A stretch of DNA of 64,000 bases from Nageia nagi (lineage: Eukaryota; Plantae; Pinophyta): assembly GCA_050084985.1 (NCBI GenBank), contig JBITNC010000001.1, positions 2,232,001-2,296,000 of the forward strand. Direction: 5' to 3'. A program made the translations under genes and the position numbers. This document shows positions 8,071 to 49,972 of the stretch, one piece after another (positions within the stretch are counted from its first letter, which is position 1; each line of letters opens with the position of its first letter). Below the pieces are notes generated by a model. It saw only the letters and a program-made list of their open reading frames with translations. It had not been told where the DNA came from and searched no databases.

Positions 8071-8074
8071 TGTA

Positions 8075-14663: not shown

Positions 14664-14777
14664 TTTTTTGTGCCTTTTGCATGCTCCTTAGTGGGCTTTT
14701 GACCTAAAAAGTACTCTAGGGGTGCATTTTGCATAGTTTTTAAGTTTTTGGAGTCTTTAAACACTCCATAGGCTTGC

Positions 14778-18510: not shown

Positions 18511-21119
18511 TTCGCTTGTAGAATCTCTCTGCGATAATCTTTCTATTGTTTAATGCATGTTTTATGATGGTTGTTGTCATGTCAGACTTTATTTACTTGA
18601 TTTGACTGGTGTAGGGATGAGTTTTTGCTCCTGCCAGATCAAATTTGTCAGACTCATTTATGACTTTGATTGGTGCAGGGATGAGGTTTTTCTTCCGTCG
18701 GTTCAAATGTCAGACTTTTATTGCATATCTAATTTCCTTTTGAGTAGTTTAGAAGTTGATTAAATGCATTTTGGTAGTGGCATTTATATTTTGTCAGTTT
18801 TTAAGCGCCACTTGCATCGTTTCATGTGAACTATTAGATTTTGTATTGGTATGTGTGTTGCGTGTGTGCACACCATATTAGATTTGATGCCCTTAGGGCA
18901 TCACTTCTGGTGGTCTATTTATACTCCATCATGGCCATTTAGAAGGGGATTTTACACATTATGGGATATTTGCATATGTGAGACTCTGCACATAATAGAA
19001 ATATTGCATATTGAGGGTCTTGCATTTTGGGATGCTGGTTACAAGCTTTTACATGTGTAAGAATTTATGAGTTTGTTGCATCTGTTATAATTGAGGTTTT
19101 CTACATTTTTATGAGTGTAACTAGGCTTTCTACATATGTTTGGGTTGTTGCATCGTAAAGCTTTTACATTTTATTGCATAGAGGTTCGCCACATAAGGGG
19201 TTCAATGCATGTTTATCATTGAATATCATTATGAATGTATTTCTTTATGGAATGAGATCATAAAGTTAATTAATATTGTGAAGAGTATCATTTGTGGGAT
19301 CGTGCATGTTTGAATAGTTTTCCTCTTGGAGTTGCATATTGAATATTTATTGAAGTGGTTTAAGCCGTTCTTTGCATGGTTTGCATGTAAGTGGATGTAT
19401 TCTGAAGCTCATAGCTTGTCTTTATATCATTCGGTTAGGTCCTTGTACTCACGGCCTCACCTCATTTATTCCTTCCCACTGAGTCTTCCACCAAGACCCA
19501 ACAACTTCTTGCTTTCGTCTAGTAGTGATTTGAGCACATATTGCTATTTGTTGCCCGATTTGATAGTGAGTACATTTACCTTAATGAATCTGGAGATGAC
19601 TTGTCGAGACACTGTTGTGATGATCCAAATTTAATTTCAACCATATACTAGCAGTTCTGGACCATCAAACCTTGACTTCGGGTCTAGGGCATCAACATAC
19701 AATCAAACAAACCCTCAAGTGCCAACGTTAGCGTTAGGACAATGAATACACATCATAATAATGGAAACATGCCAACTTCTAGCTCATACAATTGATTAGC
19801 AATGAACATCACATCACAATGCCAACGTCTGGTTCATACATGTACAATGAAGCAAAGACAATCCAATGCATGCACAAGTATGGAATACGCAACACAATAA
19901 TGAGATCCAATGCCCTTTGGCTGTATACAATAGATATGAATAGCATTAATACAATACCAAGCCCTAAGGGGCAGTCGTTGGCCTCCAAGGAGCCAACCAG
20001 GTCATAACAACAAGTATCTCCAATACCGGACGAACTACGAAACCATGGGATAGATCTACCCCCTCAGATCTTGAATCCTCTCCACTGAAGTAGCCCTCCT
20101 TGAACTCTGGCTGATCGACTGAATGGTAGAAGTAAACCTTCGAAATGCCACCGGATGGGCAAAGATGCTCCACCAATGCCGTAGATAATCAGGATCCCAA
20201 TGCGTGACTACCCCTCTAGACGCTTCGTCTAGGAATGGTTGCTTAGCATCACTAAGACTTGTGTCCAAAGGACTGTAGTAGAAGTGTAATAATAATCAAT
20301 TGGGTCCACTAATGAAGCTCCAATGGCTATTTATACATTACTTATGTCCAGATCTCACCTAGGAGTCATCCTAGGCCCATCTAATCCAACGTTGGGCATT
20401 TGGGGGGCCCAATCACTTAAAGTGCCAACGTGGGGGTCATGATCACTTAAGTTGCCAACGTGGGGTCCCTAGCACTTAAAGTGCCAACGTGGGGGTCCTG
20501 GAGTCCTCATGAGCCAACATGGGGGTGTGGGGCCCTCCCTAGTGTGGCGCTTGCATGCTGGTCGTTGTCCATCACTCTAATGCATAAACAGACCTTGGGA
20601 TTCCCACAATCCGTGATCTCTAATACAATACATGCCTAATCTATTGCTTAGGAGGGAGATGTCCCACTTGGGGCTCATAGTGGGGTCCACTTGACCCATT
20701 AAGTCTCCTATCCTAAGTTACAACAATGTAAATGCAAATACATCAAATAGATATAGTACAAGATGACCAAACTGGTCCCACTAAGAGTACAAAAGGGATA
20801 TCACAACTGCATCACTGGTGATACCTTCATAAGTTTATCTTTTTTTGTATTCCTTTGCACTTATCCCTGTGTTTGTCCTTGCATTTGTGATCTTTCTTCA
20901 CTTTCATTCACATTTGCAGTCTTCCGCATCGTGGCAAAGAACTCAGCATTGTATTTCCCTTGTATACGGTTAACAACATGCATCTCTGACTACTGTGCCT
21001 TAAATACCATATTCCATGTAAGCGTTTGGGGTAACCAGTCCTTTCAGGTGAAGACAAGTAACGCTGTTTCTTCCAAGTCTTGTGCATGTTTTGGACTAGG
21101 AAAGAAAAATATACCAACA
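18511..21119 (+). mobile_element. 3' non-coding part and terminus of unit A
   Basis: Collinear with 43588-44947. Ends GGAAAGAAAAATATACCAACA. Confidence 0.88.
19616..20805 (-). mobile_element. Solo LTR (1,190 bp), related to the LTRs at 46910 and 49049
   Basis: TGTGAT...ATCACA termini, TSD ACTGT/ACTGC, and an empty site visible at ~44630. Shares ggcctccaaggagccaac and ttgaatcctctccac with the 46910/49049 LTRs. Confidence 0.88.
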
Positions 21120-22670: not shown

Positions 22671-23422
22671 CTAAAAATAGGCAGGCAAGTGTTACTTCCA
22701 TGAGAACATGACCAGTTAACTGCATACATTTTTGTTCAATAACTAAGAGGAGATGATGGTAATGGAAAGAAATGGCAATGACCTATGATAGCATTAAATT
22801 TAACCTCTGCAATGATAGATAAAGATAGATCATCAAGCAATTAAAGTAAATGATCTACAATTTAAAGCTGCAGAAACTTGAAAAAAAAAAATTTATGGGC
22901 ATGCTTTTTGCTGATTTACTTTGTATATACACAAAGTAGACAAATCTGCATAGAAACTCTCCAAACTACAACTAGCATTAATGACTTAGAAAAGGCCTAT
23001 GGCATTGATCTTCTGAAGTATCTTTAGATTGTAACATTCTGTTTAATATGTATTTTATATTGCACTTTAACTTAGTTTTATTCCTGTTTTCTTGTATATT
23101 ACAGCACCCATCTTAGTGATTTGTCTCCACTTGCTTTTTTTTTGAGTCCCATTGACCTATGGTCATTCATGGACATTAATAAATTTCTTTCATTCTTTTT
23201 AATATCTGACTGAATTATATATCAAGATTTGTTCTAGTGACAAGATATAGTTTCAATTATCTTGTTTTTGTTTGCTTTCCTTTGCAATGTTATTAGGTAA
23301 CGTTTAATTTTTTCATTTTCAGATGTAAATTTTCTCCTTTTTAAGCTTTTGTTATAGAATTGAGTTTTAGTCTCATGAGTGTCTTCTTGTTAAAGAATTT
23401 GAAATGTTTCTGTCCATACCAG

Positions 23423-24118
23423 GATGATGCACTGCCTAGATACAGTTCTTTGCAGCTGCCTAGTCCTCTTGTAAGCAAGTCTTCTAGGTATGAACGATCC
23501 CCATCACTCACACCACCAGAAGCTTGGGGAGGAGATCCACCAACTGAAAGATTCGGCCCAAAGAACAAGTTATCAAGATTTGCTCCCTCTGCACACCTGG
23601 ATACCGATGAACTTTTATCTGGCTTGGTCTCTTCTCGTTTACAGGATTTATCCTCATCCAGTGTTTCTGCCACTCTTTGTTTTCCTGCAAAAAGTAGTCC
23701 TAATGTCAGTTCTGCTAAAGTTGTAGATGCTGATTTTTCAAGATCAGGCAATTCCTCTGTCATTTCAGAACCTTTAACTACACATAATATGAATAATATC
23801 ACAAGTTTCCTGGGATCAAAGGTCGTCGCAGGACAATTAAATGCTGATATGTCCGGGTTAGCATTGCCAGGGTTATCAAGGAAATACATGGAGTACACTG
23901 AAAGAAGAGCAAGTAATAGTTTATCTAGAGATTTTTCATTTGCAGGTGATGGGGCATTATTGAATGCTGAATCACCTAGAGAAAAGAAAATTGGTCTTGA
24001 GAAGGAAGAACAAAGTGGTGCTGCCAGTGAATTGAATGAGAAAAGGTTCTCTGAAAACAATTCATTCTTAAGAGCAGATACTTCAGTGCCTCCATTATCT
24101 TCTTCTTTGCCTGCCAAT
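23423..24118 (+). CDS. NEDD1: NEDD1/GCP-WD (gamma-tubulin ring complex targeting factor), large Ser-rich internal exon
   Basis: cag|GAT...AAT|gtaagt, 696 nt, phase 0-0. Contains the plant NEDD1 motif LTPPEAWGG and is in frame with the exon at 55151. Confidence 0.82.
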
Positions 24119-24989
24119 GTAAGTGTCTGTCTCTTCATTTTCTAAAAATATGTTATATATGGTGCATGACAAACCTGGGACTCTGTTAAGAACTAGTACT
24201 GCAGATTGATTGCAGTAGGAAATGTGTTGAGGCATAATATACATCCTAGTTTATAAATGCATGTAAATACTAACACCTTCATTTGGTTGATTTTTACAAA
24301 TTTGCTTTCCATACAACCATAGTGTTCATATACAAATCTATTCTGTGATGTCGAAGAATTATAAAGTTTTTCCATGATTGTCTGCAGATTGCTTTTACAA
24401 ATCTGATTACTGATTTGGTTTCCAATATTGCTAATCTACAGATCTGTGGAGATTTAACAGTCTCTTTTATAAAGTAATTTGTAACAGAACTGTCAGTCAG
24501 GAGATAATATTTGAAAGTTCCCATAATAAATCTTAAAATTTGGTCAAACTTAGATGCAACTCCTTTGATAATGGTTTATAAGGATTGGCCAAATATTCAT
24601 GAGAATATGAATGTGTAGCCATAAAGTATTTTACTTGTTTCATGGTCACAATATGAAACATTTTTCCTGCTTATGTTGGCATCCTCGTGTCATTCTCTGG
24701 TGGGCTGGTCATGGTAAAGATTCCCTTAGCATTTTGCATATGTTATAGGGGGGTTGCAGGACCAGTCTGGATATGCATGTAAAATTGCTAAAATTTGATG
24801 TTTGTGCATAGATAAATAAAATAACCTGCATTTTCTTCTTCACAAGATCTGATAAACAGGAAACTAAGAAGAGGAGTTGAGGCCTTGAAAATTTGAAATA
24901 ATGTTGTCAATAATTTTGCCATTCCATTTAAATGAGGAAAAAATTGTTAGAACAGCCCAAGAGCTGAACAATTTTCTGAACACAATTCC

Positions 24990-25430
24990 TTACTCCAAAT
25001 CTGGTCGCATGGTTTTGAATGAGTGCCTCAAGCACTGCCTTAAAAGTATGCGACTGGGTTCAGGGGTTGATATGAAATGCCTTGGCCAAAAAGGCTAACT
25101 GGATGTGCAACATCCCTAAATCTTCCTTCCCTCCTTGGTTGCACGTTTCGGAGTGAGTGCCTAAGCATGCATGAGAAATGGTGCGACTAGTTCCTGACAT
25201 GAAGATGTAATATTTCTCAATAGTCCTCCTTCCTTGGTCCCACGTTTAGAAATGAGTGCTCAAGTAGGGAGGATAAATGGTGCGATTGAGAAGAGGGGTG
25301 GTAATGGAATGATATATGAAATGCTCAAAAAGGGGGGTGGTATTTACAGGTTTTTATTGTTGTCAAGCGTCACTTTTTTATTAGCCCGTCTAAGGGTCAA
25401 ATAGAAGGCCCACAACAAGGTCGCAACACA
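24990..25430 (-). mobile_element. Fragment of a C-type unit promoter/motif region
   Basis: ggtcgcatggttttgaatgagtgcctcaagca is the reverse complement of ~35540-35573. ggggggtggtatttacaggtttt matches the reverse complement of the ~35240 TATA region. Confidence 0.65.
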
Positions 25431-25499: not shown

Positions 25500-28400
25500 T
25501 ATAAAATTGAAGATGCCAAGCTGCGAAGGACGAAAAACCATGCATAATTAAACTTGGAACTTCTTGAAAACAGTCAAAATTGCAAAATCTACGAGGAGGC
25601 ATTTTTCAAGTTTTGATGATATCAAAGCTTGGAAACATGCACCTGGAGGAGATTTCAACAAGTTTGAATTTCGCTAGAGTAGAATTTGGAGGATATGAGC
25701 CAATGAAAGACACCGTTGCAGACCTGGTTCGAAAATCCGTGATTAATCGGCGAGTACTCGCGAGTAACCGCGATTCGAAGGCAAAACGAGTAATCGAGGG
25801 TCATTACTCGGCCTTGACGGTTTTTGTAGGTTACTCGATGATCACTCAGTGGTTACTCGACAATTACTTGGTGATCACTCAATGGTTACTTGACAGTTAC
25901 TTGGTGATTACTTGTCTACCATCAAAATAGAGTTAAAAAACATGAAAAAGACGGTAAACAGCAAGATATGCCTTTTAACTATCTAATTGTGTCTCATTCT
26001 TCTCATTCCATTGTGTTAGCTCAATTTTTTGCTCTGTAGATCAATTTGTGAAAGATTTGAAGTTTGAGTATCAATTTGAAGAGCTTCAATGTTGATTTGT
26101 AAGTTTTTTCATATTTTGTAATTTTTCATATTTTGAAATGTTCAAGGTTTTTTTGTCGACTTGCGGTGCCGACTTTTTTCTGAGTACTCTCCGAGTTGTC
26201 GAGTACTCTCTAAATTTTTCCTGGCCGAGTAGTTCCCAAGTCCGAGTTTTCCAACCTTGGTTTCAGACACCTTTAGGCTTGGAGATCTCAAAGTTCGACC
26301 AAAGTTGCTCTTTCCAAAGTCTAGACACAGGTTTTCTGGTTGTGATGATGTCAAAGATGGAAAAATGGCACCTAGTGTCAAGATGCCTCATTTTGATCTT
26401 CATCAAATTTGAAATTTGAAGATACAAGCATGAGAAGGGTACCAAAACAAACAAGTTTAAGCTTGAGAGTTTTCAAATTTGATCAAGTTTACTCCGTCTC
26501 ACCTCTAGGCGCAGATTTTGGGGGTTTGATGGTGCCAAACATGGAAAACATGTGCCTAGCATGAAGATGAACATTTTTAACCAAATTTTGAATGCATTTT
26601 TGAAGACATGGAATGATGGAGAAAGGAAAAGCAAGTGCTTTTGCTCTTGGAAATTTGAAAAAAGACCAAAAAATATGTCCAAGAGATGTAGGCATCATTT
26701 TGGGAGCTTTGATGGCATTAAAGCTAGAAAACATGCGCCTAGGTCATGAAACACTCAAATTTGACATTTTGGAATAGGATTTTGAAGACACCATGATGTG
26801 TAGGATGAAAAATCAAAGGGATTTGGCTTTGAAACTTCTTCAAAAGGATCAAAATTGCTCACTCAAGAGGTAGGCGTGTTTTTTGAGTGTTTGATGTCAA
26901 CAAAGAGAAAAAAACATGCTTCTAGACCAAATGGGCTCTATTTTTTACATTTGAACATTTCAAATTTGAGCACCTAGAGGCATGAAGGATTGAATTTCAA
27001 GTCAAATTACCTTTGGAGGTGCTCAAAATACTCAAAAACTCCCCTTCCACACCTAGGTGCAGATTTTGGGGATTTGATGGTGTCAAAAATGGAAAACATG
27101 TGTATACCTCAAGATGACACAAGTTTCGATTTTCATGGAAGTGAAAAGTGAGCATACAAACTTGTGGAGGACCTAAATCTAAGTATCTTTAGGCTTGGAA
27201 GTTTGTAAATTGATCAATTTTACCTCCTCCTACAGCTAGGTGCAAGTTTTGAGAGTTTGTGAGGTCCAAATATGGAAAAATGACGTCTAAGCCCAAACTA
27301 CTCAAAATTTACCATTTGTCAAAATCAAAATTTGAAGGTATGAGGTGGTGCACAATGCAAATCCAAGCATGTTTGCACTTGGAAGTACTCAAAAATGACA
27401 AAAAATGCACATTCTATACCTAGGTGCAATTTTTAGGTGTTTTATGAGACCAAAGAAGGAAAACATGCGCTTGGGTGAGGAAGACCTATTTGGCATGGAA
27501 AACACACCTTAGAAAGTGATCTTATTTGTCAAAATGAGGCTAACAAGCATGTGAAAAGCACCAAAACCAAATTTGAGCACCAAAAGCAAATTTGCGTACC
27601 AAATCCAAATTTGAGCACCAAAAGTGCACCCACTCCCAAAATTGAATTCTAGATCCAAAATTCTCAAAATTAATGCAAAATACCTTGGAGTTTTGTTGCC
27701 TATCCATCCATGGCCTTGTTGGATCAATCTGATAACTTTTTGAAAATTTTCCAAAATCACTGCCCACGCCCCCACCCCATAGAGCATTTCCGAAAATTTA
27801 GATGAAAATCCACTTTTTTGAAAATCCTCACCAAATTGCTTGAAAGTTCGCCAAGAACACTCAAATGTAGATTGAATCCATATTTGACAAGAAAATGTAC
27901 TTAAAGATGGTGGAGGAGATTCATAATGGCTTCAAGATCCGTTGAAGAAGGCTCAAATTTCTATCTATTTAGCTTATATTGCTTATGGGATGAGTTTTTA
28001 CTCCCACAACTTGAAATCTAATTTCAATTTCAGTTTGCATTTCAATTTGATTTAGAGCAACACTAGGTTGCTCTCAAAAGTCTGTAAATTGACCCTAATG
28101 GGTCTCGTTTGTTCTAGAGTGAAATTTGTGAATAAAAAGAGTAAATTGATGTATTCTTGTATGCTTTTAAGCAAATTTATACAAAGTGGTGAATTTTTAA
28201 AAACAAAGTGAATTGTCATTTGTGGGATTGCGGATTCGATCTTTTGGAGCTTTTTTTGAGTGACTTGGATTCTTTCGTGCCATTTCTTTAAAAAATTTCA
28301 AATTTTAGGAATTTTTTTTGAAAATTTTAATCATTCTTAGATTGGTGCCAATCTACAATTTGCATGTTAAGTGAACGTAATCTGAAATTTCTTTCATTCT

Positions 28401-29145: not shown

Positions 29146-29344
29146 TGTTGGTATGTTTTTCTTTCCTCACCCAAAACATGCACAAGACTTGGAGGAAACA
29201 ACGTTACTTGTTTCAACTTGAAAGGATTGGTTACCCCAAGTGCTCACATGGAATATGGACTAGGGAACAGTGGATAGAGATGCATGTTGTTAACTGTATA
29301 CAAGGGAAATATACGGCCGGAATTCATTTCCACAAAGAGGAAAG
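29146..29344 (-). mobile_element. Terminal ~200 bp of an inverted A/C-type unit, cut by unit B
   Basis: Reverse complement of ~44755-44947 (TGTTGGTATGTTTTTCTTTCCTC...). Confidence 0.88.
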
Positions 29345-31580
29345 TGTTGTGCTTGCACAACACCCTCCAAAAATTTGCATTTTTGAGGACCCTCATTGTA
29401 CTAAAACGTAAAGACATGAAAGATTCTTTTGAGGAAATGCATGCATTATAGGTGTAGCAAGGGTACACGTGGTAAATTTGAACCTTCATGTTCAAACGAG
29501 TCAGAATTTTGCCATTTTATCCATGGCACACGTTTTAGGGGACATGCTTTTGCATGTACATTGAAACTTGCACCCTCCTTCATACTTCATAGTTTTGGGT
29601 TAAGTCTTGCATTTTTAGATTCAAACTGCATTATTCATGCCCATTTTTACTTAATCATTTTGTGAAAATTGCATCCCCTCCATCACATCTCATTCTTGAG
29701 GATCATTTTGGTCATTTTGAGGAGAATTAACATGTTTTGTGCCTGAGCGCATGTTTTGAGGGACATGCTTTTGCATTTACCCAGATCGGTGCACCTAGGT
29801 GGATGAGGTAGTTTGACACTCAGCAGATTTCAGAGGAAAATTGTCAAAACAGCTTGAGCGCATTTTTGAGGGACATGGTTTTGCATGTACCCAAAATAGT
29901 GCGCCCTTGGCAAAAAGAGCATTCTCAAGCACTTAGTCATTTTTAGAGAAATTGGTGAGTTGGCTGAGCGCATGGTTTTGGGGACATGCTTTTGCATATA
30001 CTCAAATCAGTGCGCCCTCCTTCAGATGCAAAATTTTGGCTAAAGTGTGGGATTATGGACATTCACTATGGAAAAGAGAGGTGTGCTCACATGCATCGGA
30101 CCTTCACTCACACTAAAAGTTGCATGACACCTGTCCACTTGAGCAAGTCTATAAAAGGAAGGTCAGCTTCAACATTTAGTTTGTTTGGTTGAATTCAGAG
30201 CCTTGTGCAGTGCTATGTCCATAAAGCATGTCCCTCAAATTTTGTGCCCTATTTTGGATGGTGATTTTCAAGGTCATTTTCATTAAATATTAATTTGTTG
30301 CATTGGAGAGTGTGTCACGGGATTGTGCACATGGTTTCTGGAGCATGCTTAGGCACTCATTCAAATTGGTGCACCAACTTCCAGATGTCCTGGCCCAGGG
30401 GTATTTTTTTGACTAAGTATACAATCTTGTAAAGGGGCCTAGGCGCATGTTTTCTGGTACATGCTTTTCCACTCTTCCAAAAGGGTGCACCCAAAATCCA
30501 GGAGCATTTTCAAGTCAAGTATTTTGAGGTGCCTGTTTTGGTACCCACAAGGATTTTGGGACATGCTTTTGCACCCCTTCAGAAGGTTGCAACCAAGTTG
30601 CAAAGGTTTTCAAGTATAATAAAATTAATTACTAAGTCCTTTTTATGCATTAAAGTTAGTAGGCGCATGCATTTCTAGAACATGCTTTTGCACGTACTCT
30701 AAAACGTATGCCCACCATCTTGGCTTTGTCATTTGACCTCATTTTGAACCAACCTAGAGGTGATATTGGGCATGTTCGAAGGTTATTTATATGAAGCAAC
30801 CCCTTGTATCATTTAATGCTTCATTTCATTTTGGGTTGAGATTCTTCGTCGCATCATTTTTGAGAAGGTGTCTGTGCTGCCAAAAGCCATTTTTAAGAGG
30901 GTGAGCTATATCCCAGGGTCCATTTTTTGTAATTCACTTTGCATTTTTCTGTCAAGGCTTGCCCTAAATTGACCTATGCTCATGTTTTCTCACTAGTGCT
31001 TCAAGGACTCATCCAAGACGGTGCGCCCAGGTCCATATTTAGGAATTTGGCGAAGTATACCTGATTATTAGATGCATTCTGTTCTTTCATTCATGCATTA
31101 GAATTTAAGGCGCATGCTTTGTGGAACATGAAAAAACACATGCCCAAATCCATGCGCTCTAGCATGAAGTGGTGATCTGGCCTCTCAAGTAGAAAATTGT
31201 TGCCCAAAAATTGACAAAAGTGATGTGTATGCCCATCAGGAGACCAGTCGCCTATTTTTTAGGTAGTGAAAAAGCACGTACCCAAATCCGTGTGACCTGG
31301 GGACAATGAGCCAAAATTGTCTAAGTATTGGAGAAGCCAAGAGTTGGAAGACTAAGAAGACAGGTGGCACACCCACTGTGTGCCATGCATAAACCCTACA
31401 TGCAGCTTCTATAAGAAGGCAATTCGAGTTCATTTCTGCAGGACATTTTACAGCTTAGACCTGCATGTCTGGCCAAGTTTTTCTATGCACATCTAATTCG
31501 GTGTTTGACCGTTTTTGGGGCATTCCCAACCAGAATTCCAGCTTTTTATGTAGTTTTCTGCACATTTTTCAGATTTTAAG

Positions 31581-34500
31581 ATGACTTCTAAGGTGAGGTC
31601 TCCCCCATCCAAGGCTAGGAAGATTCAGGGTTGTTGGAATGTATAATGCATAATTGTAAAGGTTATGTAATAATCTTCTATGTAAGTTCACTAATACTTA
31701 AGGGTATCATTTGATACCTTAAGTATTTAAGTGAATATGATAATGTTACTTGTCCTACACTCCATGTCATGAGCATGCCCCTTGGGTAAAAGGATGTGCA
31801 TGTCATGCTTTTGTACATTGGATAAAAGGGTGATCCAAAGAGAGATTTTGGCCTATAAATAGAAGGCTCTCCTATTTGTGATTACACACCCAATTGTGGA
31901 GTAAAGTTATGCTATAGGATAGTGTTTAGGAGTTGAGATTAGGAGGATTGTAAGAGAGTTGTATTTGTGATTGAAGTAAAGATCTAGTTAGTGGATGTGC
32001 TTCTAGTTGGAGGAACCACTTACATCTTGTGTTGTGTTGTGAGATTGCTTTGTGAGTTTCTTAGATGTGTATTGTGAGCTTTCATGTGATCTTGGGAGTT
32101 TAGAGTTGTTCATGTTATAGTTCAACTCTCTCAAGGGGTAGCTTTTTGAAAGACATGTCACAGATGACCAGATGGAGAGGATTTTGAGGGAAAGTCAGAT
32201 AGAATTGCAAGAAAGAGAAAAACCAGAGCTCTCTAAAGCCAAATTTAAAAGGGAGATTCGCCTTTGTTGGTGATACAAATTGGGGAAGTGTTAACCCCAT
32301 TTAGACCATAGCCTCCACTGCCTCCATTAGTAAGGAGGGCTCGTTGGATGAAATCATCCATTCTTGTGGGTTGTTTAATGCCATTATGATGCCTTTTGTT
32401 GTTTCATTTCCTTAATTGTTTTATGAAATTCTCTAAATGCTGCAAGTATGACAAAAGAGTTCTCTTGGACACCGAAGGGAATGTGATCATGGGCTTCTCT
32501 CCAGAAGGAATCAAAGCCGCCTTTGGTTGGAGAAGATACGAGGATGATTATACATTGGCCACTTCAGAAGAATTCCATGACTCCACTTCTTGGCCTGGGG
32601 ATTATATCAGAAGATGGTTGTATGAAGACTACCAGGGCATCCAGGGCCAGAGATTGATTCGTTCTTGTAGGGATGAGTTCCTCCCCACGATTGCTAATTT
32701 GATCACTTTGTTGTACAGAGTCACAGGTCAAGAAAATGACTCCAGTACATGAAGGAGTTCATTGGATTTATTGCCGTGATCAGCTCAAGGAGAGCTATTC
32801 GGTGGAACAGGGTAATTAGTGATGCCTTGCACCACCAGCTAGCCTACTTTGGCTTTTCTAGGAGGTTCTATATGAGCTCTTATCTTGTGTACCTATTGTT
32901 GCATGACAAGCTCATATCAAGGGAGCTTGCGGATGAAAGATATTTGGGCCAAAAAGGCATCCCGGTGTGGCAAATCTATTAAAAGTGGTGGTATCATAAT
33001 AAATTCAAACATTTCTATGAGAGAAACGACAGATGGGAGTACGCCATTTACAAGGAAATCAAGGAGAATCAGTAATCAAAAGAATCTCTGATGCTACTGT
33101 TCAAGCCATCAATGTGCATGCAGACTTCTATCTGCAATATACTGATCATACTTACATCAGGATCTACGGCTCTAAAGAACAACCCTTGCTCTTGTCCAGA
33201 TATGTTAGTGACAAAATGATTCTCATGGAATTTGCCAGACAATTACTGTTTTTGAAGGAACAAGTGTGGAGAAAGGATGCAACCATCAACTTACCCATTT
33301 CCATCGCAAGTTATGTTTGGTAAACATGGGTTGAGGGTAATAATATGAAGAAAGAGTTGCAGTAGTATGTCTTCTTCAAGGAGATGGCAGCCAGAAACTA
33401 CAATCCTAGGGGTGTTATCGCCCGTTTCTACAATACCGCATTCTAGAAACTTGTTGTTTACAAGCATAAGTCTTTGGGGAATGTGAGAAAGTACATAAAT
33501 GTACGAGATGAGGAGGAGATAACAAGAATAGATGCTCTTTTGAGCAGGAATAAGGCTCCCCTTCAGGTAGAAAAGGCACCTCAGAGACCTAGATTTGTGA
33601 AAGCAAGACCTAAAGAGGTCCCATTGAGGATCAAAACTTCCCATCCTTCTTCAAGCGTTGCACCTTCTCAAGTCAAGACATCCTTGCTTCCCAGGGGAAA
33701 AAGACAAGGAGTGTCAAGAGAACATGCCTCAGCAGGACCTAGTAAACGCAGTGTGGTGACTGACGTAGTGAAGAAAAGCCAACAGGGTGTCTGATTTTAG
33801 AGACGCTGGTTATCGTGATATCGCTTTGAGCATGCTGGAGGAAGCCCATGCTAATGATTCCCTTGTTGAAGAAACTCCATCGAGACCACTCGTCCTCCTG
33901 AATATGTAGAGAAAGTTCTCCCACCACAACCAAGTTGTAGTTCTTTCAACACTCCACTTCTTATGAAGAACCCGACCGTACTGAAGAAGGCTCAGAAGAA
34001 GAGACAGAGAGCCAAGAGAATGATGTAGAAAGTTGTGGTGAAGAAGGAGAAGAAGAAGATGATGATGCAGATGATGCTGTTGATGAAGAGTGCCTCGGTC
34101 AAGAGAATGTAGCTATAGGTGCTTCTGTACCTAATGATACAGAGATTGAAACTCTCTCGAACAACAATGATGACTTGTACGTAGACGTTGGGACCTATGA
34201 TGAAGAAGTCCATATTGTTGGAGTGAAGTATGCCAAAGATGTGGGTTCTTCCAAACCCTCTCCTATTGAACATAGAAAGAGGTCACCCTCATCTTCTCAT
34301 AAGCCCTTTGTGAAGAGGACCAACCATTAGAGATCCCTTTAGCCACGAAAGAAAGGTCTATCAATAGGTGGTGATGGGGGAGACGAAAAAGATGGAGAGA
34401 CCGAAGAACAAAAAAAGAAGAGGAAGTAGGACGAGCATCAGGGTAAGGAGGTTGCCCTTGTTTAAACCACTCCAACCAAAGAAGTTAAGAAGATTAGTTA

Positions 34501-34647
34501 AAGCTGAGTGCTAGTGCAGAGGTTCCCTCCCAAGCTAGCAACCGAACACCTAGATCTTGACTTAGATGCCTTCCTAAGAGACTTAAGCATGAGTACGACT
34601 CATGATGAAGAGATTGATCAGGACTTGAGGTTCGAGGATGAAGACAC
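31581..34647 (+). pseudogene. Large ORF copy B, truncated and interrupted by a solo LTR
   Basis: MTSKVRSPPSKARKIQG...GDTNWG...IRWNRVISDAL...RRFYMSSYLVYLLLHDK...YIRIYGSKEQP...DQDLRFEDE. Confidence 0.88.
31632..32133 (+). mobile_element. Solo LTR (502 bp)
   Basis: TG...CA termini, TSD AGGGT/AGGGG, CCTATAAATAG at ~31852. Removal restores ARKIQG-(Q>stop)-LFERHV. Confidence 0.85.
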
Positions 34648-36327
34648 GTAGCCAAATTTCGGAGCTTCAAGGCTTGTCACAAGGGTGGAGATGAGTCCTT
34701 TTGCACTCATCCAAAACCATGCGACTAGGGAAAATAGAAAGCAAAAAACCTAAGTGTTGGATGTTAGTGACAAGTGGAAACCCATGCATTAGACCTCACC
34801 CTATGCCTATCTCATGGTGACACGTGTCCCACCTTGAAAGCTATAAAAGGGAAGTCACCACCCCTTCATTTCTGTTTGCAAAATTGAAGGAGGGCCAGAG
34901 CGTGGGAGATAGGAGAAAAAGCACCCCTTCTTGGATGTGCGACCAAGGACAGCCTACACCTTTTTCAAGTTTTGTTCAAAGATTGACCTTGGTAAGTGTG
35001 CCAAGGGTTGGGCGTAAGGATTCAAGCTTGTGCTTTGAGCACCCATCCAAAAGGATGCGACAAGGGAGTTAAGGGCTCTAATATGTCGGAAATTGACTAA
35101 GTCCCCTTGTCCCACTTCCTAGTCGCACCATTCCTATCTGGTCCTTTTGCACCCTCCACCATCCATGCGACCTTGTTCGTAAGCTTCCTATTGGACCTTT
35201 TAGCGAGCTGGTAAGAGAGTAACACCTGGCTTAAGAGCAAACCTATAAATATCACCCCCTCCTTTGAACATTTCATCTCTCATTTTCATCCCTCTTCTTA
35301 GTCGCATCATTTTTCAAACATGCTTAAGCATCCATCCTAAAACATGCGACCAAGGAAGGGACATTAAAATACATTGCACTCATTTTAGGGCTTGGTCGCA
35401 TCATTTTTTATGCATGCTCAAGCACCCACTTCAGAGCATGCGACCAAGAATGGAGATTCAGAGACGTACATCCAGTTAGCCTCTTTTGGCTAAGGCATTT
35501 CAGATCCACCCTTGAAACCTAGTTGCATCATTTTTCATGCATGCTTGAGGCCCTCATTCAAAACCATGCGACCAACTTTGGGGTGAAGAATTTAGTTCGG
35601 GAAATTGACTAAGTGTCACCAGGCCCAATTGCACGCATTCCTGGCTGTACTTTTGCACTCATTCATACTATGTGCTTGGACTAGTCAGTCATTTGGAATT
35701 GAGGAAGGATTAGGGTAGCATCCTCCATGGCTTCAAGCACCAAAGTACCCACTTTGAAGGCCAGAAAGACCCAAAGCCAATTATTCGGGAGGCATGTGAC
35801 TAAAAGCCGGATGACTCGACTTTTGAGGGAGAGTTTGATAGAATTTCAGCTGAAAGGCAAACCAAAGCTTCCCGAGGCCAAATTCAAGGGGAAATATATC
35901 TTTCTTGGTGACACTGATTGGGGTGACTTGGACCCAATTATGGCCTTGGCCTCTACAACCTCTCTCAGCAAAGAGGACCTGTCTGCAGAACTTATCCACA
36001 CATGCTTCTTGTTCAATGCTGCCATAATACCATTTGCAGTACCTTTTCCCAACTTGTGCAGTGAAGTGGCCAAGAGGTGTGATTTCAGCAAGAGATTGCT
36101 ATGGGATATAGAAGGTAATGTAATCATGGACTTCACCCTTGTTGGCATTGAAGCAGCTTTTGGTTGGAAACGTTATGGGGATGGCTATACATTGGTGCAT
36201 TCGGAGGAGTTTCATGATTCCACTTCCTAGCCTGGGGACTATATTAGACCTTGGTTGCTTGAGGAATTTCAGAACCTTCAAGGGCAAAGGTTGATCAATG
36301 CATGAAGAGAAGAATTTCTACCAGTGG

Positions 36328-39300
36328 TGATCCGTAAACTGAAGGATTAAATAACTAATTTAACCCTACTTGGATCATTCACACTTAAAACTTATTAAGT
36401 GCTTGCAAATATGTGAGAGAGATTGAGTGTTATTAATTATTTCAAAAAAAATGCTGTGAGTAATGTAGGAATCCACAAATCACAAAATTTGCGATAATCA
36501 AAAGAATGCAAACCACAAGGAGAAGAACACCAAAAGTTACCCTGGTTCACACCAACTTGGGCTACTCCAGCATGTCTGCGCTCTCTCAATTATGGAATGG
36601 AATCAGGCATGCAATATTGCCTTTACAATATTTCCTCCTGTCTTGACACCTTTTGATCAATATCCCTTCATACCCATCAACATACTCTCCTGGAACAATT
36701 ATCAAGCATTACAATGATAAAAACACACTGTCTACTTGCACCCAATTCACAGACTTACAAAGTGTCTACTCTCAACTCTCTCCCAACATTCCCCCCACAT
36801 AGCCTCCTTTAAATAATATTTTGAAGGAGCTACGTAGCAATATTTTGGTCATAGCACACCTGTAGGAAATCTCCAAAGAAGGCAAAGATTGATTTGGCCA
36901 GAATGCAATCTCCTTTCTCCTTATCCTCTCCCCTAAAAATGCACTATACGCCATATTTTGCTCTCTGGAAAATATATGACAGTCTAAAATAACACCTACA
37001 GGATTTAAACAATAATTATAGTCTCAAAAATAACATCAAAACTCCAAATTACATTAAAATCCATGCAATAGGTTAAAATTGGGCGGATGGCACAGAATTG
37101 CGCCACTTGGCACTTGCAAAAGGCTTGGTCAACTCCCCTTTGACCGGCGGCTGGCGGTTTCCGACGACTGGCGGCTTCCGGCGGTTGGCGGCTATGTCGG
37201 CTGTCTCCACTCCACGCGGGCTCTAACACCTCACACTCGCCTCACCTTGCCACCTCACTCCAACGTGGCCTCCACATGGGCCCCCTTTCACCTCCACGCA
37301 GCCACAACAGGCGGGTCCCGCTCCTAATGGCCGCCCAACATTTAATTTAATTTTTTGAATATATTTTTTTATATATATATATTTTTTTTTTTGCCTTTTC
37401 ATATTTTCCACACAAACTGGATTTAATTGCATAACTTCCTCATACGGAGTCGGATTTACGATCCGAAAGAAGCGTCGGAAAGCTGACGATGAGACGATTC
37501 CAATGAACTCATAGAAACCTCTTGACATTGATCATTAAAGTGATCCAAATTCGGATCATTCCTCCACACTGAGAGAGTGCTTTCGTCCTCGAAAGCTCAA
37601 GGATGACAAAGATGAGGAACCCAGTTCCCCAACATAGGTCCATGCCAATAATGCCTCCATGTATTCTCAACTGCGAAAACCACTGGATATCCTGGCACAC
37701 AACTTGCAACACTGCATCCCATAGAATTTTGTGTCACCATATTGCCAATCTGTATGGCTTGCCTTTGCTCCTCCTGCGATACTGAAACCTGTGCTTCTTC
37801 TTTCACACTCAACAATGTTAAGTTTCTTGAAGCATTAAACAACTGTCTAACATGCCCAGATAGGATTTTAGGATTTTTACTTTTATGAGACTGAAGAATG
37901 TAGGTTTTACCATCCTTCCTTAGTTGATACTCATTCCGCTTGCGCATGAAAATTGCATCCCTATCATACAAATATGGGCTGCCTAATACAATGCCACAAA
38001 CATCGAGAGGTACCACATCTAATAACACTTCATCATAAAACTTTGTATTAACCCCAAACTTCAACTTACACTGTCGTGTGACTTGCAATCTAGCATTTCG
38101 ATGCATCCATCTGAGTGGATATGGGCGTGGGTGAGGTTGAGTTTGCAACTCCAAATCTTTCACCAAGTCCTCAGCAATCAGATTAACCTGTGATCCTGGG
38201 TCAAACAACACATCAATCTTGGTTCTTTTTGCTTGAACTTTAATATGGAATAATTGAAGTCTTTTATCCTCCTCACTTAATTCATATGAATTCTTAACTC
38301 CCATGCAGTTCATTTGCTCATCAATCTCAGATGTATCATCTATATCACAAATTTCTTTACCCTTAGAAGCTACAACATTTTTCTTTTCTTGATTCTTTGC
38401 AAACCATTTCGGTGCTTTATCAGGATGGAGTTTCCAACACTTAGCATCAGTATGACCATCTAAATTGCAATGTGAACAATGCCCTTTATCTTTCTTATCC
38501 TCTTTCTTATCATCTTTCTTAATTGATGCATTCGTTTGCTTTTTACCTTTAGGATCTTGATCTCTTGATTTATCACGTGCCTCAAGGTGTGTAGCTTGAA
38601 CACAAACTTTGTCTAAATCATTCACATCAAAAAGAAGAAGTGTATGCCTAAATATGAATGTAAACCACCAATATACTTGAATAATGTTTCTTCACTATTT
38701 AGTGCAATACCCAACATATTAGCCTTTTTACGAAATTCAGTAGTGTAGTCTTGTACACTTTGGCCCTTACCTTGACGTAGATTTTGCCACTCCATGATTA
38801 CCTTTGGCAAATACCCAAGTGGATAGAAATGATCTCTGATATGTTTCGTAAAGTCTCCCCATGTAGTGATCTCCACATCCAAGTTAGATCGACTTTCCCA
38901 CCATATAAGAGCTGAACCTCCCAACTTGAGAGTAGCTAATTGAATCTTGGTCCTGTCATCAATAATCTCATGCACTCTACAATAGACCTCAATTTGCTTA
39001 ATCCAAAAATCTAATTTCTCGGCATTAACCTCTCCATCATACGTAGGCAAATCAAATTTCACTTCTAATTTAAGAGGCGATTTCTTAGAATTAAAGAAAG
39101 AAATATGTTCATCATCACCTTCATGTGTGTTGTTTCTCCCTGAATTCTCTCCTAGAGATTCTTTAATCCTTGCTTCATTCCGCAATTCATCAATAGCCAT
39201 GGTCATTTTCGTTATCAGGGATTTAAGAACATCAAGCTCAACATAGACATTCCTCTCTGATTCTGTTCTCTCAGCCATTTGCCTTGTCCAAATTCTGGAA

Positions 39301-40686
39301 CCAATCTCTGGATCTTCTTCAGCAAGAACTCCTTCACCTTTTTTGCTCTTTGATCTGGTAAGCATCAAAAATACACACTATCCAATCCAACAAGACTTGC
39401 AGTAATTGGATTTAAAGAATACCCATTATTCTTATAGGTTATCCCATTATAATCATCAGCTCTGATACCAAACTTGATCCGTAAACTGAAGGATTAAATA
39501 ACTAATTTAACCCTACTTGGATCATTCACACTTAAAACTTATTAAGTGCTTGCAAATATGTGAGAGAGATTGAGTGTTATTAATTATTTCAAAAAAAATG
39601 CTGTGAGTAATGTAGGAATCCACAAATCACAAAATTTGCGATAATCAAAAGAATGCAAACCACAAGGAGAAGAACACCAAAAGTTACCCTGGTTCACCCA
39701 ACTTGGGCTACTCCAGCATGTCTGCGCTCTCTCAATTATGGAATGGAATCAGGCATGCAATATTGCCTTTACAATATTTCCTCCTGTCTTGACACCTTTT
39801 GATCAATATCCCTTCATACCCATCAACATACTCTCCTGGAACAATTATCAAGCATTACAATGATAAAACACACTGTCTACTTGCACCCAATTCACAGACT
39901 TACAAAGTGTCTACTCTCAACTCTCTCCCAACATTCCCCCCACATAGCCTCCTTTAAATAATATTTTGAAGGAGCTACGTAGCAATATTTTGGTCATAGC
40001 ACACCTGTAGGAAATCTCCAAAGAAGGCAAAGATTGATTTGGCCAGAATGCAATCTCCTTTCTCCTTATCCTCTCTCCTAAAAATGCACTATACGCCATA
40101 TTTTGCTCTCTGGAAAATATATGACAGTCTAAAATAACACCTACAGGATTTAAACAATAATTATAGTCTCAAAAATAACATCAAAACTCCAAATTACATT
40201 AAAATCCATGCAATAGGTTAAAATTGGGCGGATGGCACAGAATTGCGCCACTTGGCACTTGCAAAAGGCTTGGTCAACTCCCCTTTGACCGGCGGCTGGC
40301 GGTTTCCGACGACTGGCGGCTATGTCGGCTGTCTCCACTCCACGCGGGCTCTAACACCTCACACTCGCCTCACCTTGCCACCTCACTCCAACGTGGCCTC
40401 CACATGGGCCCCCTTTCACCTCCACGCAGCCACAATAGGCGGGTCCCGCTCCTAATGGCCGCCCAACATTTAATTTAATTTTTTGAATATATTTTTATAT
40501 ATATATATATTTTTTTTTTTGCCTTTTCATATTTTCCACACAAACTAGATTTAATTGCATAACTTCCTCATACGGAGTCGGATTTACGATCCGAAAGAAG
40601 CGTCGGAAAGCTGACGATGAGACGATTCCAATGAACTCATAGAAACCTCTTGACATTGATCATTAAAGTGATCCAAATTCGGATCA
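36328..40686 (-). mobile_element. Young non-autonomous Ty3/gypsy-type LTR retrotransposon, gag-protease only (TR-GAG-like)
   Basis: Near-identical LTRs 36328-37558 and 39475-40686 (TGATCCG...CGGATCA), TSD AGTGG, tRNA-iMet PBS TGGTATCAGAGC at 39459-39470, PPT at ~37559-37568, 1.9-kb internal region. Confidence 0.97.
37597..39368 (-). pseudogene. gag: Gag (Retrotrans_gag, CCHC knuckle) plus aspartic protease, with one frameshift at ~38650
   Basis: LRQGKGQSVQDYTTEF, CSHCNLDGHTDAKC and VLFDPGSQVNLI. Reading GLHSYL-RHTLLLFDVNDLD needs one extra base. Confidence 0.92.
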
Positions 40687-43600
40687 AGTGGTGGCAAAAT
40701 TGATCACCTTGTTATCAAAAGTAACCGATCAAGAGAACGATGCCATGTACTGAAGGGGGTTCACACGATTTATGGTTGCAATTAGTTCAGGGATGTCCAT
40801 TAGGTGGGCAGTGGTTATCAGTGATGCCCTACGCTACCAGTTGTCTTTGTTTGGGTCCTCAAAGAGATTCTACATGAACTCTTACTTGGTATACCTGTTA
40901 CTGCACGACAAGGTCATATCTAAGGAGTTGGCTGATGAGAGGTACTTGGGAGAGAAGAACACTCCCATGTAAAGCGCATACCAGAAATGGTGGTGCCAAA
41001 ATAAATTTGAGTATTTTTATGAAAAGACTGACGCCTGGGAATATGATATCTACAAGGATATCAAGGGAGAGTCCATGATGAAGAGGATCTTTGATGCTGT
41101 CATCTAGGAAATTCGCGTGCATGCAGACTTTTTTCTGCAAGACGCTAACTTCACCTACATCAGAGTTTATGGCTCCATGCTCCTGCCCAGGTATGTTAGC
41201 AATAGGTTGGTCCTCATCGAGTTTGCCAGGCAGCTTTTGTTTCTAAAAGAGAAGGTTTGGAAGAAGAAAAATGCCACCATCAACTTGCCTATTTCTATAT
41301 CTGGATATGTGTGCCAGACTTGGGTGGAGGTAAGACACATGCGGGAGGAGTTACAGTAGTATAACTTCTTCAGGGAAGCTGCTGCAAGGAACTATGATCC
41401 TAAGGGGACAATTGCCCCTTTCTATGACACTGCTTTTCATCGGCCCATAGATTTGTGAGGTGAAGAAAGGTATAGGAATGTGCAGGACGAAGGGGAAATT
41501 GCACATATCACAACTTATTTGAAAAAGAAGGTGGTTCCCCTTCGAACAGAAAAGCCCCCTCAGAAACCTCGAACTATCAAACCCCAACCTAAGGAGGCTA
41601 TTTTGAAGGTCAAATCTCCTACCCACACAACGTCCTCACCCAAGAAGGAGAAGACCTTGCTTTCTATAGGAAAAAGGCAAGAGGCCCCGAGAGAGCCTCT
41701 TCCAGGGCCCAGCAAGCGTAGTGTGTTGGAAGCTGACCTTAGAGATGTTGGCTATTGTGCTCTCCCTTCAGATGTGCTGGAGGATGTGATAAACATAGCC
41801 TATGGGAGTGACTCCCCCACGGAAGTGATTCCTTCCAGATCAACCCATTCTCTTGGGCAAAGAGGGAGAGTTCCCTCATTACAACAAAGTCCTAGCAGCT
41901 CCAAGCCCTCTTCCTCTTCTTTTGATGAAAAAACTGATGGAAACTCTGACCGTACAGTTGAAGACTCTGCAGAAGAGTTAAAGAGCCAGAGAGGAGGAAG
42001 AGGGAGGTGATGCCAACGTTGACCACTCACATCAGCCAGAAGACATAGCCAATGGTGCTTCAGCGCCTGACGAGACGGAAGTAGAAACCATTCCGGAAGA
42101 TGAAATAGTGGACGTAGGCACTTATGATGATGACATCCAGATACTTGGCCAAAAAGGCGCTAGAGAGGTGGTTGCCTGCAAATCCTCTCTTGCCGTGCTC
42201 AGGAAAAGGTCTCCTTTGCGTAAAACCTCTACTAAGAGGAGTCATGATAAATCTCCCTAGCTCCGAAATATAGGCATATCTCTAGGCGGTAGTGGAGGAG
42301 ATGAAGAGGATGAGGGAGAGAGAGAAGAATAGAAGAAGAAGAGAACGTAGGAAGAGCATGAGGGCAAGGAGATAGCGGTAGTTCCAACTACTCTAGTAAA
42401 GGTGGCCAAGAAAGTTGATAAAGGAAGGTTGTTGGTTCAGAGATTTCCCCCTCAACTAGTGATCGAACATCCAGACCTTGATCTAGATGCATGCCTTAGA
42501 GCCCTCAACATGAGTGCAGCTCGTGATGAAGATATAGACCAGGACTTGCGGTCTTGAGGATGAGGAAGAACTGTCGGATGTGGAGAAAATTCGAAGGGTG
42601 GACACCTTTGTCTCCACCTCTCAAAAGGAGATCTCTATTCATCATTGCTACTCCAAGGAGAAGCATCCTTAGAGGGCCAAGGATTGTCTTATCGAAACAT
42701 TTAAGATGCCAATCAAATTGGGGTTAACCGCCAGGAAACGCATTGTTACCCAAAATGCTGCAATCATGGAACAAGAAGGCTATGAAGCCAAAAGGGAAGT
42801 AAAGAGATTAAAGAAGGAGCTCACAGCCAGTAGAAAAATTATAAAGGAGTTCCAGAAAATCAACACAACTCCCTTACATTTGCAAAAACAAACTTCCTTC
42901 CATGAGGGGTGGGAACTCATGAAGGACCAACTCAAGAATGAGATGGTAGAGATTGTCGAGAGATTGTCTTCACGCATTTACAAGCTCCTAGCCGAGGGCG
43001 TTGAGATCAGGGATCTCAAAGCTCAGATTACTACTCGCCTCGGCCAGTTGGACAATTACCTACCCAATGTTTCCCACCTGCAGCATACTTTTGCCGATAA
43101 CCCCGAAAAATTGATCTACTGCCATGAGTTAACCTATCACCACGATTGGTTGAACCACGCACTCGAGAAGTGCAATGCTGTCCTCAAAGTAAGGATCCCC
43201 TTGCGAAAGGAGGTAGATGAGCAAATGAGCGAATATCTTTATCATCTCAAATTCTAAGTGGAGGATAATAATTTTCGAAAGAAGGAAGTAGTGTTGGCAG
43301 AGGCCTAGAATCTAATCGAGGAACATCTTGAGATCGAGAATCTAAACTTGTTGAAGGCAGGGCTTCCTATTGAGCACGAGAGGCGGATGGTCGTCTGGAG
43401 GTACCAGATGTAGGCCACTATCAAAAAGATTGAGGATTACTTCCGGTAGAATGGTAGTACCATTGGTATGATCTCTAAGGGCATGCAGAAGACTGTGGCA
43501 TTCTTGGAGGAGACAATTGAGTCCTATGGTCTCACCAGCGAGGAGTGGAACTTCGCCCGTACCAAATCAGATCTGGACTAGATTTGATTCACCGCAGGCT

Positions 43601-44947
43601 TCCCCTGCGGTACTTTTTTATGTTAATGCATACAGGTGCTTGTCAGACTTTACCTTGATTTGATTGGCGTAGGGATGAGGTTTTGGTCTTGCTAATCAGA
43701 TTTGTCAGATTCATTCATGACTCGGATCAGTGTAGGGATGAGGTTTTGCTCCTGCCGGTTTTGATGTCAGACCTTTTCACTCTATTTATTGCATATCTGA
43801 TTTTTTGTTGGATAGAATAGAGGTAGAGTAGATGCATTGCGGCTATGGCATCTATATTTGTCAGCTGTAGATGCCACTTACATAGTTTTGCATGATGATA
43901 TATGATTTTCTATCGGTATGCGTGTTGCGTGTGTGCACGCCGTATCATATTTGATGTCTTTAGGGCATCACTTCTAATGGCCTATTTATACCCCACTTAG
44001 ACCATTTAGAAGAGGATTTTTACATATGGGATTTTGCATGAGGAATTTTTTGATATGATCTTGTACTATTTCTGCATGGGACTTTGCACATAATGAAAGC
44101 ATCATATACTGGAGTTCTTGCATCTTGAGATTGTGGCTATTGAGTTCATTCTTATAATAATTTTGAGCTTTTGCATATCATAAGATTCACATTCCATTGC
44201 ATAGAAGATTGCTGCATAAGGGGTTCTATGCATGTTCTGTTATTGGAAATCAATATGAATGTGTTTTGTTTAGAGGAATAAAATCATAAACTCATACTAT
44301 GAGGAACATCATTTGTGGGATTATGCATATCTGAATGGGTCTCTCTATGAACTGCATATTGTTTATTTTGTGAAAGTCTTATCCTTTTTTTTGCATAGTT
44401 TGCATGCAAGTGGATATATTCTGAGGCTTACAGCTTGTCTTTATATCATTCGGTTAGGTTACTGCACTTATGCCCTCATTCCATCTTTACCCTTTCCATT
44501 GAGTCTTCCATAAAGACCCTACAACTTCCTGCTCTTGTCTGGTAGTGATTTGAGCATATTTGCTATTTGCTCCCCGGCTTGATAGTTAGTGTATCGACTT
44601 TAATGAATTTGAAGACGGCCTATCGAGACACTGTATTCCTGGTGACGCCCTCATAGATCCTTTCCTTCCCTTGCATTCGCTTGCATTTATCCCCATGTTC
44701 TTTCCCTGCAATTGTGATCATTCTTCGCTTTCGTTCACATTTGTAGTCTTTCCTCATTAAGGAAAGGAATCCTGATGCGAGTTTCCCTTGTATACGGTTA
44801 ACAACATGCATCTCTGACTTCTGAGCCATCAAAACCATATTCCATGTGAGTGCTTGGGGTAACCAGTCCTTTCAGGCGGGAACAAGTAACGCCATTTCCT
44901 CCAAGTCTTGTGCATGTTTTGAGCGAGGAAAGAAAAACATACCAACA

Positions 44948-45960
44948 TTTCTTAAATTCCATAGTGTATTCTTGAACATTTTTCCCTCTTTGTTGTCTAA
45001 AGAATTGTCATTTCATCAATTGTTTATTATGATGTCCTAATGGATAGAATTGATCTCTTAACAACTCCTTATATTTATATCCAAGAAGTTATTTCCGATA
45101 AATTTTTATGAGTAAGAGTTTCTACATGGCTTTCCATCCAAACTAAAGCATGTCCACTTATCTTTAATCTAGCAAAAGAGATTTTATCAACATCATTTAC
45201 AACACCATGAATCTAAAAATAACCTCCAATTGTTTCAACCAATTGTTCACCTTTTCCGCATCAACCTCTCCTCCAAAAGTAGGAATGTCAACTTTGGCCT
45301 CCACCTTGAATGGAACTCTATTTGATGAAGATGATGAATCAAGTCTCCCAACTACATCATGATATCTCTGATTGACATTTGCATTTGCTCCAACAGCTAA
45401 CAACTCAGCCAAACGAGCCAAATGATTCTCCATTGCCGAAAACCTCCTTTAAAAATCGACATTTGTCAGGGTACGAATAATAGATTGTTGCTCCTCCGCA
45501 TTATCCATTTCAGTCACTTTGCCCTTTTGACCAATCTCAGGATCCTCTGGAATCAACTCTAGTTTTTGAGATCTCCTCCCAAACATCAAAAACACGCCGC
45601 TGGTGGCCTGAAATACCTAAAATTCCAGCCCCAAATTTGACGTATACAAGCTCTGATACCATGTGATCTGTAATCACCGAATGCTTATAGCATACTCGGA
45701 TCCTCACAGATTCGAACAAAAATACATTCACCATTATGAGATCATACAAATTGCATATAAATTTGAAAATTGCACGGTGTAAATCACAAACTAGCAATCT
45801 CAAAACACATAACAAGATCAACACATTGATTTACCTTGGTTCACCCAATGTGGGCTAATCCAGCATAGAATTGAAGCCTTCTCTTCTCATTGTCTATGGA
45901 CATTACAATATTACATGGGGTAAAGTCCTCTCAAGTGGGAATAGGTAACGCTACTTCACC
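44948..45960 (-). mobile_element. Decayed relative of the TR-GAG-like element (partial 5' LTR, PBS, gag fragment)
   Basis: PBS gctctgatacca at 45650-45661. LTR from ~45664 shares ggttcacccaa...gggcta. Gag PFKVEAKVDIPTFGGEVDAEKVNNWLKQLE and NVQEYTMEFKK, cut by the unit C terminus. Confidence 0.8.
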
Positions 45961-49900: not shown

Positions 49901-49920
49901 GCCTTCTAAAGTTGCACTAA
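46910..49920 (-). mobile_element. Deleted Ty3/gypsy element: partial 3' LTR (46910-~47475), gag, PBS, 5' LTR (49049-~49920)
   Basis: Direct repeat of 46910-47470 at 49049-49613, PBS gctttgatacca at 49036-49047, gag ASLQFEGDALEWW...LKQQGAIDEYVSEF, knuckle-like CFYCKKMWEPRHC. No pol. Confidence 0.88.
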
Positions 49921-49972
49921 GGGGAATTCAAGCCTGTTTTATCATTTTGCACAGGATTTTGCTTGGTTCAAG

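Follow-up and report, generated by a model that had tools for sequence, protein, structure and literature searches.

Arrays of a 48–51-bp dyad motif beside a gene for a predicted VANC-like protein in LTR-like units of Nageia nagi

What purpose is served by the tandem arrays of a long inverted motif that lie directly upstream of a gene in several related repeat units of Nageia nagi DNA? The arrays were investigated in a window comprising the full 64 000-nt stretch (contig JBITNC010000001.1, positions 2 232 001–2 296 000, forward strand), in which units and array types are designated S, A, B, C, D, E and F; L001, L002 and L003 are loci outside the window, and P0001 is the cargo protein used as query for searches and modelling. 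We consider it slightly better than an even chance (probability about 0.55) that the arrays are docking sites for the unit's own protein, the predicted VANC-like domain of which would bind these sites, probably in pairs, and relieve silencing locally. This reading is the most economical one and joins two independent observations, the VANC-like domain and the constrained-looking arrays directly upstream of the gene.

An initial annotation, made from the sequence alone, had described CG-containing inverted half-sites at a fixed span of ~48–50 bp. The motif positions that it gave were borne out in the window apart from small misquotes: 4663–4710 reads GGCGCATA...CATGTGCC, the exact GGCGCATG...CATGCGCC copy sits at 4777–4824, and the copy at 29857 is 49 bp long with the letters AGCGCATT...GTGCGCC. 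In an unbiased spacing scan (distances 12–149), 12 of the 17 [GT]CGCA...TGCG[AC] pairs lay at a core distance of 46–49 (span 48–51), compared with a chance expectation of 0.03 pairs per distance; pairs at this span averaged 0.095, with a maximum of two, in 200 dinucleotide-preserving shuffles of 1-kb blocks. Profile searches and a loose scan revealed about 55 copies of five types (S 16 hits, A seven, E eight, B 12 and C 10 in three places), the fifth type, A (14923–16068), being absent from the initial list. Spacing did not vary freely, as all 46 curated window copies spanned 48–51 bp (48 bp in 12, 49 in nine, 50 in 18 and 51 in seven); this count excludes a 44-bp deletion copy (4303), two truncated copies (1916 and 30215) and four degenerate copies (1805, 25595, 30548 and 46800). 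Array periods were 182–184 bp in A and E, mostly 106–138 bp in B, 94–179 bp in C and 70–216 bp in S. The arrays were as follows.

14923–16068 (−): A-type array, seven copies, span 49–51 bp, period 182–183 bp; TATA box at 14654.
29525–31296 (+): B-type array, 11 copies of a 49–51-bp dyad and one truncated copy, period mostly 106–138 bp.
34676–35572 (+): C-type array, six copies of a 50–51-bp dyad, GTCGCA...TGCGAC; TATA-like boxes at 34841 and 35243.
25004–25286 (−): second C-type array fragment, three copies.
25595–27471 (+): E-type array, seven copies at a 182–184-bp period (26324–27471) and one outlier, span 49–50 bp; no cargo gene downstream.
4088–5052 (−): S2 array, eight copies of a 48-bp near-perfect palindrome.
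1114–2004 (−): S1 array, homologous to the S2 array (equal spacing pattern), eight copies including one truncated.

The further claim that every subfamily carries its array upstream of the cargo gene held for A, B, C and F (one degenerate copy in F), but not for the S, E and second C-type arrays, near which tblastx detected no cargo homology and which therefore look like gene-less derivatives. Unit D has lost its 5' part, and L003 has a cargo gene without a detectable array. Another candidate, L004, was discarded because it amounts to a 20-mer shared by chance, and blastn matched none of it to the window.

The motif is best viewed as one whole dyad, and not as a pair of half-sites plus filler. 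The arm common to the types reads (TA)G[G/T]CGCA, followed by a T-tract at positions 9–12. Between types, identity was 0.60–0.75 in the half-sites, 0.16–0.33 at positions 13–24 (0.48 for B versus C) and 0.25–0.35 in the distant flanks; between A and E, both of 183-bp period, half-sites (0.65), T-tracts (0.84) and span were kept whereas interiors (0.33) and flanks (0.35) were at chance identity. The centre was conserved within each type, being AAGACAA.TTGTCTT in S, TGC-N4-GCA in B and C, GGAAATCC in A and TGATG-rich in E; the S-type unit of L002 has the centre GTCATAATTATGAC and a span of 46–48. The earlier statement that half-sites and spacing persist while interiors differ was thus right for half-sites and span, but the interiors hold a conserved, subfamily-specific centre and are no free filler. 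Half-sites were more conserved than interiors between subfamilies, and when two copies of one subfamily were compared they were also better kept than the array remainder: non-CpG half-site positions of unit A and the independent copy L001 were 93 % identical (76/82), compared with 78 % (926/1186) for the array remainder (p=0.001). By this pattern, the arrays behave like constrained candidate binding sites.

S copies were near-perfect hairpins (z −7.7 to −11.1 versus base shuffles, 4/4), whereas A and E copies did not fold (z −1.7 to +0.9, 5/5). A conserved RNA or DNA hairpin was therefore ruled out as the general function, since folding was limited to S copies and some B and C copies. Half-site CpG decay over all arrays was strand-biased, with 25 CG>CA versus seven CG>TG on the unit sense strand, although the copies are not independent.

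The predicted N-terminal domain of the cargo protein matched VANC21–DNA (PDB 9lnk), the single clear hit among 48 161 chains; the predicted model belongs to the VANC fold, at 8 % identity. For the unit A gene, the model and fold search of P0001 gave a layout of VANC-like domain, acidic linker and helical C-terminal part, in which a C-terminal coiled coil may be present, the observations being a crude heptad score and a long predicted helix at aa 458–496. Among the matches listed for 139 members (best 25 of 49 families, E≤1), DUF1985 was absent and neither PF10536 nor PF04195 was matched. Pfam and PDB sequence searches with the cargo protein and family profile gave nothing relevant, Foldseek searches against PDB (both models) and against viral models gave nothing at E≤0.001, and no relatives were found in viral and prokaryote collections. 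A homodimer prediction for aa 35–500 scored 0.00, which says nothing either way, as the alignment was not used and the protein's own fold was uncertain. The B, C and F proteins group together and have a common motif centre, and A differs in both; motif–protein co-evolution cannot be shown from this, because there are only four units, related by descent.

What kind of element carries this combination? From its 5' terminus (TGTTGTG-N4-CACAACA), the repeated unit runs through the array and a TATA box to a single long gene, and it closes with a conserved 3' terminus whose last letters are CCAACA; a second TATA-like box lies 0.9–1.1 kb from the 3' end. The arrays lie between the 5' terminus and the TATA box, 300–1300 bp from the terminus, at one end only and beside the promoter. 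The 5' terminus is an 18-bp hairpin at 17349–17366, 29345–29362 and 5330–5347 (imperfect in S2). The units and the features belonging to them were as follows.

9432–17366 (−): unit A, complete, 7935 bp, inserted in the D gene.
10678–13921 (−): broken cargo gene of unit A, ~1080 codons, 83 % identical to P0001 over aa 1–461.
29345–29400 (+): unit B 5' terminus, starting with the 18-bp hairpin (profile of two other 5' ends, E 8.6e-07).
31581–34650 (+): broken cargo gene of unit B, ATG at 31581, with stops and frameshifts (tblastn of P0001, translations), split by a solo long terminal repeat (LTR), its 3' part lost where unit C joins.
31632–32133 (+): that solo LTR, unrelated, inserted in the B gene at about codon 17 and flanked by AGGGT and AGGGG.
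35727–43580 (+): cargo gene of unit C, also broken, into which a young gypsy-type element has inserted; the end is approximate.
36328–40686 (−): young Ty3/gypsy-type element in the C gene, with remnants of gag and protease, LTRs of 98 % identity and the duplication AGTGG.
44748–44947 (+): conserved 3' terminus of unit C, ...GGAAAGAAAAACATACCAACA.
29146–29344 (−): final 200 bp of an opposite-orientation unit, abutting the B 5' end, 82 % identical to the C end.
8071–21119 (+): unit D, cargo gene pieces (also ~2046–2231), ending in a 3' terminus at 21119; unit A and a solo LTR (~19615–20807) break it up.
46619–53145 (+): unit F, degenerate 5' end, one motif copy at 46800–46849, broken cargo gene from ATG 49973.
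2232–5347 (−): short unit S2, with both termini of the family but neither a cargo gene nor a matching duplication.

Unit A, the only complete copy, is flanked on both sides by the duplication AGAGG (Mutator-type target duplications are ~9 bp), has TGTTG...CAACA ends and lacks internal terminal repeats. Contigs from other runs cover its whole length at high depth, and immediately past 17366 they part into unlike sequences (in run X2, 12 contigs, agreement 0.44), so that it is a high-copy unit with a boundary at this position. Coverage of the unit was even and DNA-like in runs presumed, by guess, to be RNA. Run X9 covered the gene of unit A far less deeply than its ends and promoter (9481–10600, 13977–14800 and 17068–17348), which suggests that gene-less derivatives are abundant in that organism, although contig depth is a poor measure of copies.

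No Mutator-type transposase was found among the 54 open reading frames (ORFs) of the window, and the complete unit A contains the cargo gene alone. Its first and last 1.5 kb gave no match with E below 0.28 in a search for terminal inverted repeats, the only correspondence being the 5-bp TGTTG/CAACA. In its ends and its 5-bp duplication, the unit matches an LTR; TG...CA ends with a 4–5-bp duplication were present in one of the two two-ended units, A, whereas S2 has both termini without a matching duplication. None of the eight recognized 3' ends was followed by a primer-binding site and none of the five 5' ends had a purine tract without other explanation, so none of the copies examined belongs to a full retrotransposon. 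At 45914–46028, a related 115-bp end (E 1.7e-10) lies 255 bp from a minus-strand primer-binding site and gag, an arrangement that would place the gene antisense in the LTR. From these sequence features the unit is probably an LTR, in either orientation.

The 5' end of unit B and the abutting inverted 200 bp (29146–29400) mimic a terminal inverted repeat with 44748–44947. A single element at 29146–44947 with 200-bp terminal inverted repeats was ruled out because of the separate 5' terminus at 29345, the lack of a duplication and the absence of such repeats from the complete unit A.

Nesting was frequent: A and S2 lie inside D, B inside an inverted unit and an S-type unit inside the L002 gene. 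S-type units at window positions 2232 and ~2045 and at L002:1687 abut or interrupt cargo genes at codons ~50–110, all antiparallel to the gene, and the early parts of the B and C genes also carry other elements. These early-gene insertions could reflect open chromatin or targeting just past the promoter, the numbers being too small to tell.

In the mechanism that we propose, each protein copy would cover one ~24-bp arm, with two copies per dyad; the outer half-site would be the contact common to all subfamilies, and the centre would set subfamily specificity. Binding would keep the unit promoter and neighbouring DNA unsilenced, and the open promoter would in turn give positive feedback on expression of the protein, whilst the gene-less short units (S and E), which retain arrays, may borrow the protein in trans. 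The interpretation offered in the initial annotation, a possible self-recognition or anti-silencing module, is partly supported. More tentatively, the locus may exemplify a VANC/PMD-fold anti-silencing module outside eudicot Mutators, which would combine array, promoter and gene in an ~8-kb LTR-like unit of a giant plant genome, with a 50-bp dyad of common outer arms and a subfamily-barcode centre, and would be parasitized by gene-less derivatives. An indirect test gave a negative result: between unit A and L001, half-sites showed no extra CpG retention (6/15 versus 57/157 other CpGs, p=0.78).

The arrays might instead be enhancer repeats of an ordinary LTR, to which a host transcription factor binds, with some other function for the cargo protein. 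Their position upstream of TATA boxes, their persistence in gene-less units and the half-sites common to all types would fit such enhancers, as would the similarity of CATGC, present in the arms of B, C and S, to the RY element of B3 factors. CATGC is, however, mostly missing from the A and E arms, a single host factor has no need of a fixed 48–51-bp dyad with a subfamily-specific centre, and the best structural match of the adjacent gene's product is a sequence-specific transposon DNA-binding protein; we regard this explanation as unlikely.

Binding of the cargo protein to the arrays for mobilization or target choice (integration tethering, or a self-contained TG...CA element) would accord with the missing primer-binding sites and purine tracts, the nesting of units within units and the lack of CpG protection. 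Nesting is, however, frequent in repeat-rich introns anyway, the arrays are set back from the terminus at the promoter end alone, and VANC and MAIN/MAIL, the protein's structural relatives, regulate chromatin, which makes this role distinctly unlikely. Neutral amplification of an old palindrome or hairpin by tandem duplication, with half-sites reflecting descent and no current function, has in its favour the near-perfect S hairpins and the tandem arrays described as common in large non-chromovirus elements (PMC6317226). It is already weakened, and to our mind very unlikely, as half-sites, T-tracts and span outlast interiors and flanks at chance identity (A versus E), A and E copies do not fold, and half-sites are better kept than the array remainder between two element copies.

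Elsewhere in the window, a host gene exon encoding a C-terminal part of NEDD1 was identified at 55142–55339 (+) (phmmer to human and Xenopus-type NEDD1 chains, E 4.2e-05); an ORF at 23345–24142, without a match in searches, may be a further NEDD1 exon. S2 has an open frame at 3344–3961 (−) of ~170–205 codons, cargo-unlike and without a Pfam match, that is lacking from the S-type unit of L002. An anonymous insert at 5348–8070 (−) contains acidic ORF fragments without a Pfam match, and its start loosely resembles the loose end after the unit terminus in run X1. Young gypsy-type elements with gag and no pol occur at 36328–40686 and 46912–49615 (LTRs 98 and 92 % identical, respectively). The L003 cargo gene contains a chromodomain-type gypsy element (L003:5317–8797, −), the LTR family of which is also found in the window (~19615–20807 and 46912–49615). 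A 128-bp tandem repeat without the dyad motif lies upstream of the A array (16458–16718), and a LINE-like reverse transcriptase fragment at 57800–58219 (+; RVT_1, E 9.5e-13).

The feature is real, and the initial idea is strengthened by the structural match and corrected on element class and motif anatomy. No paper describing such a module was found in the literature searched, which covered few subscription papers. As a candidate protein and a precise candidate site lie side by side, with natural subfamily variants, the question is directly testable. If the proposed role is true, each LTR, and each solo copy, would act as a self-activating cassette, the enigmatic PMD-type ORFs of retroelements would gain a function, the origin of VANC-like anti-silencing would be pushed back before the flowering plants, very large plant genomes would have a mechanism by which retroelements escape silencing, and new long, specific protein–DNA pairs would become available for targeted epigenome editing.

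How, then, does the unit compare with known systems? It resembles a Ty3/gypsy solo LTR in its TG...CA ends, 5-bp duplication, TATA-like box ~0.9–1.1 kb from one end and lack of long terminal repeats, but differs in its size (7.9 kb, compared with LTRs of up to about 5 kb in PMC6317226) and in containing a full-length gene region with its own promoter; no cognate full-length element was found at the eight 3' and five 5' ends. Solo LTRs are reportedly rare in conifers (PMC5751070), so that a series of copies that look solo would be odd in a conifer host. PMD extra ORFs of enigmatic function are reported in Ty3/gypsy Tat and Ogre elements, including gymnosperm lineage III, the PMD-A ORFs lying between the LTRs, either antisense at the 3' end (gymnosperm lineage III) or sense at the 5' end (PMC4408406, PMC5418596, PMC6317226). 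These share with the cargo gene a retroelement context, and their PMD is reported to be a structural relative of VANC, a coiled coil beside the domain being a further possible likeness; they differ in lying in the internal region of a gag–pol element, whereas the cargo gene lies inside a TG...CA unit with its own duplication and no gag–pol, and the accessible sections of these papers mention no cognate DNA motif, in place of which there is here a candidate dyad.

The PMD-C proteins MAIN, MAIL1 and MAIL2 are associated with the promoter motifs M1M and M2M, of which M2M is palindromic, and these sites are reported to oppose silencing (10.1101/2024.09.27.615353). A palindromic motif, a promoter location and a fold family reported to be shared by VANC and MAIN-type PMD (PMC13547354; 10.1101/2024.09.27.615353) are points of likeness, but MAIN/MAIL are host genes without tandem arrays, for which direct DNA binding is not shown in the available part of the latter source; no MAIN/MAIL structures turned up in our structure searches. 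VANC anti-silencing proteins and their target arrays belong to the VANDAL (Mutator-like) transposons of Arabidopsis (PMC5735166, PMC10398659), and VANC is described as dicot-specific in PMC13547354. The present host, by contrast, is a gymnosperm, as look-alike proteins and a 31-kb intron would also suggest. The VANC analogy drawn in the initial annotation gained independent support from the predicted fold match but did not extend to the element, which is no VANDAL because it has no transposase, different ends (TG...CA, with a 5-bp duplication), no DUF1985 match and a much longer, symmetric site, a 48–51-bp dyad compared with the 8–9-bp asymmetric word of VANC. Tandem arrays of family-specific motifs in non-coding DNA are nevertheless present in both, the predicted cargo fold is alike despite 8 % identity and, if the proposed binding holds, the element would work like VANDAL/VANC.
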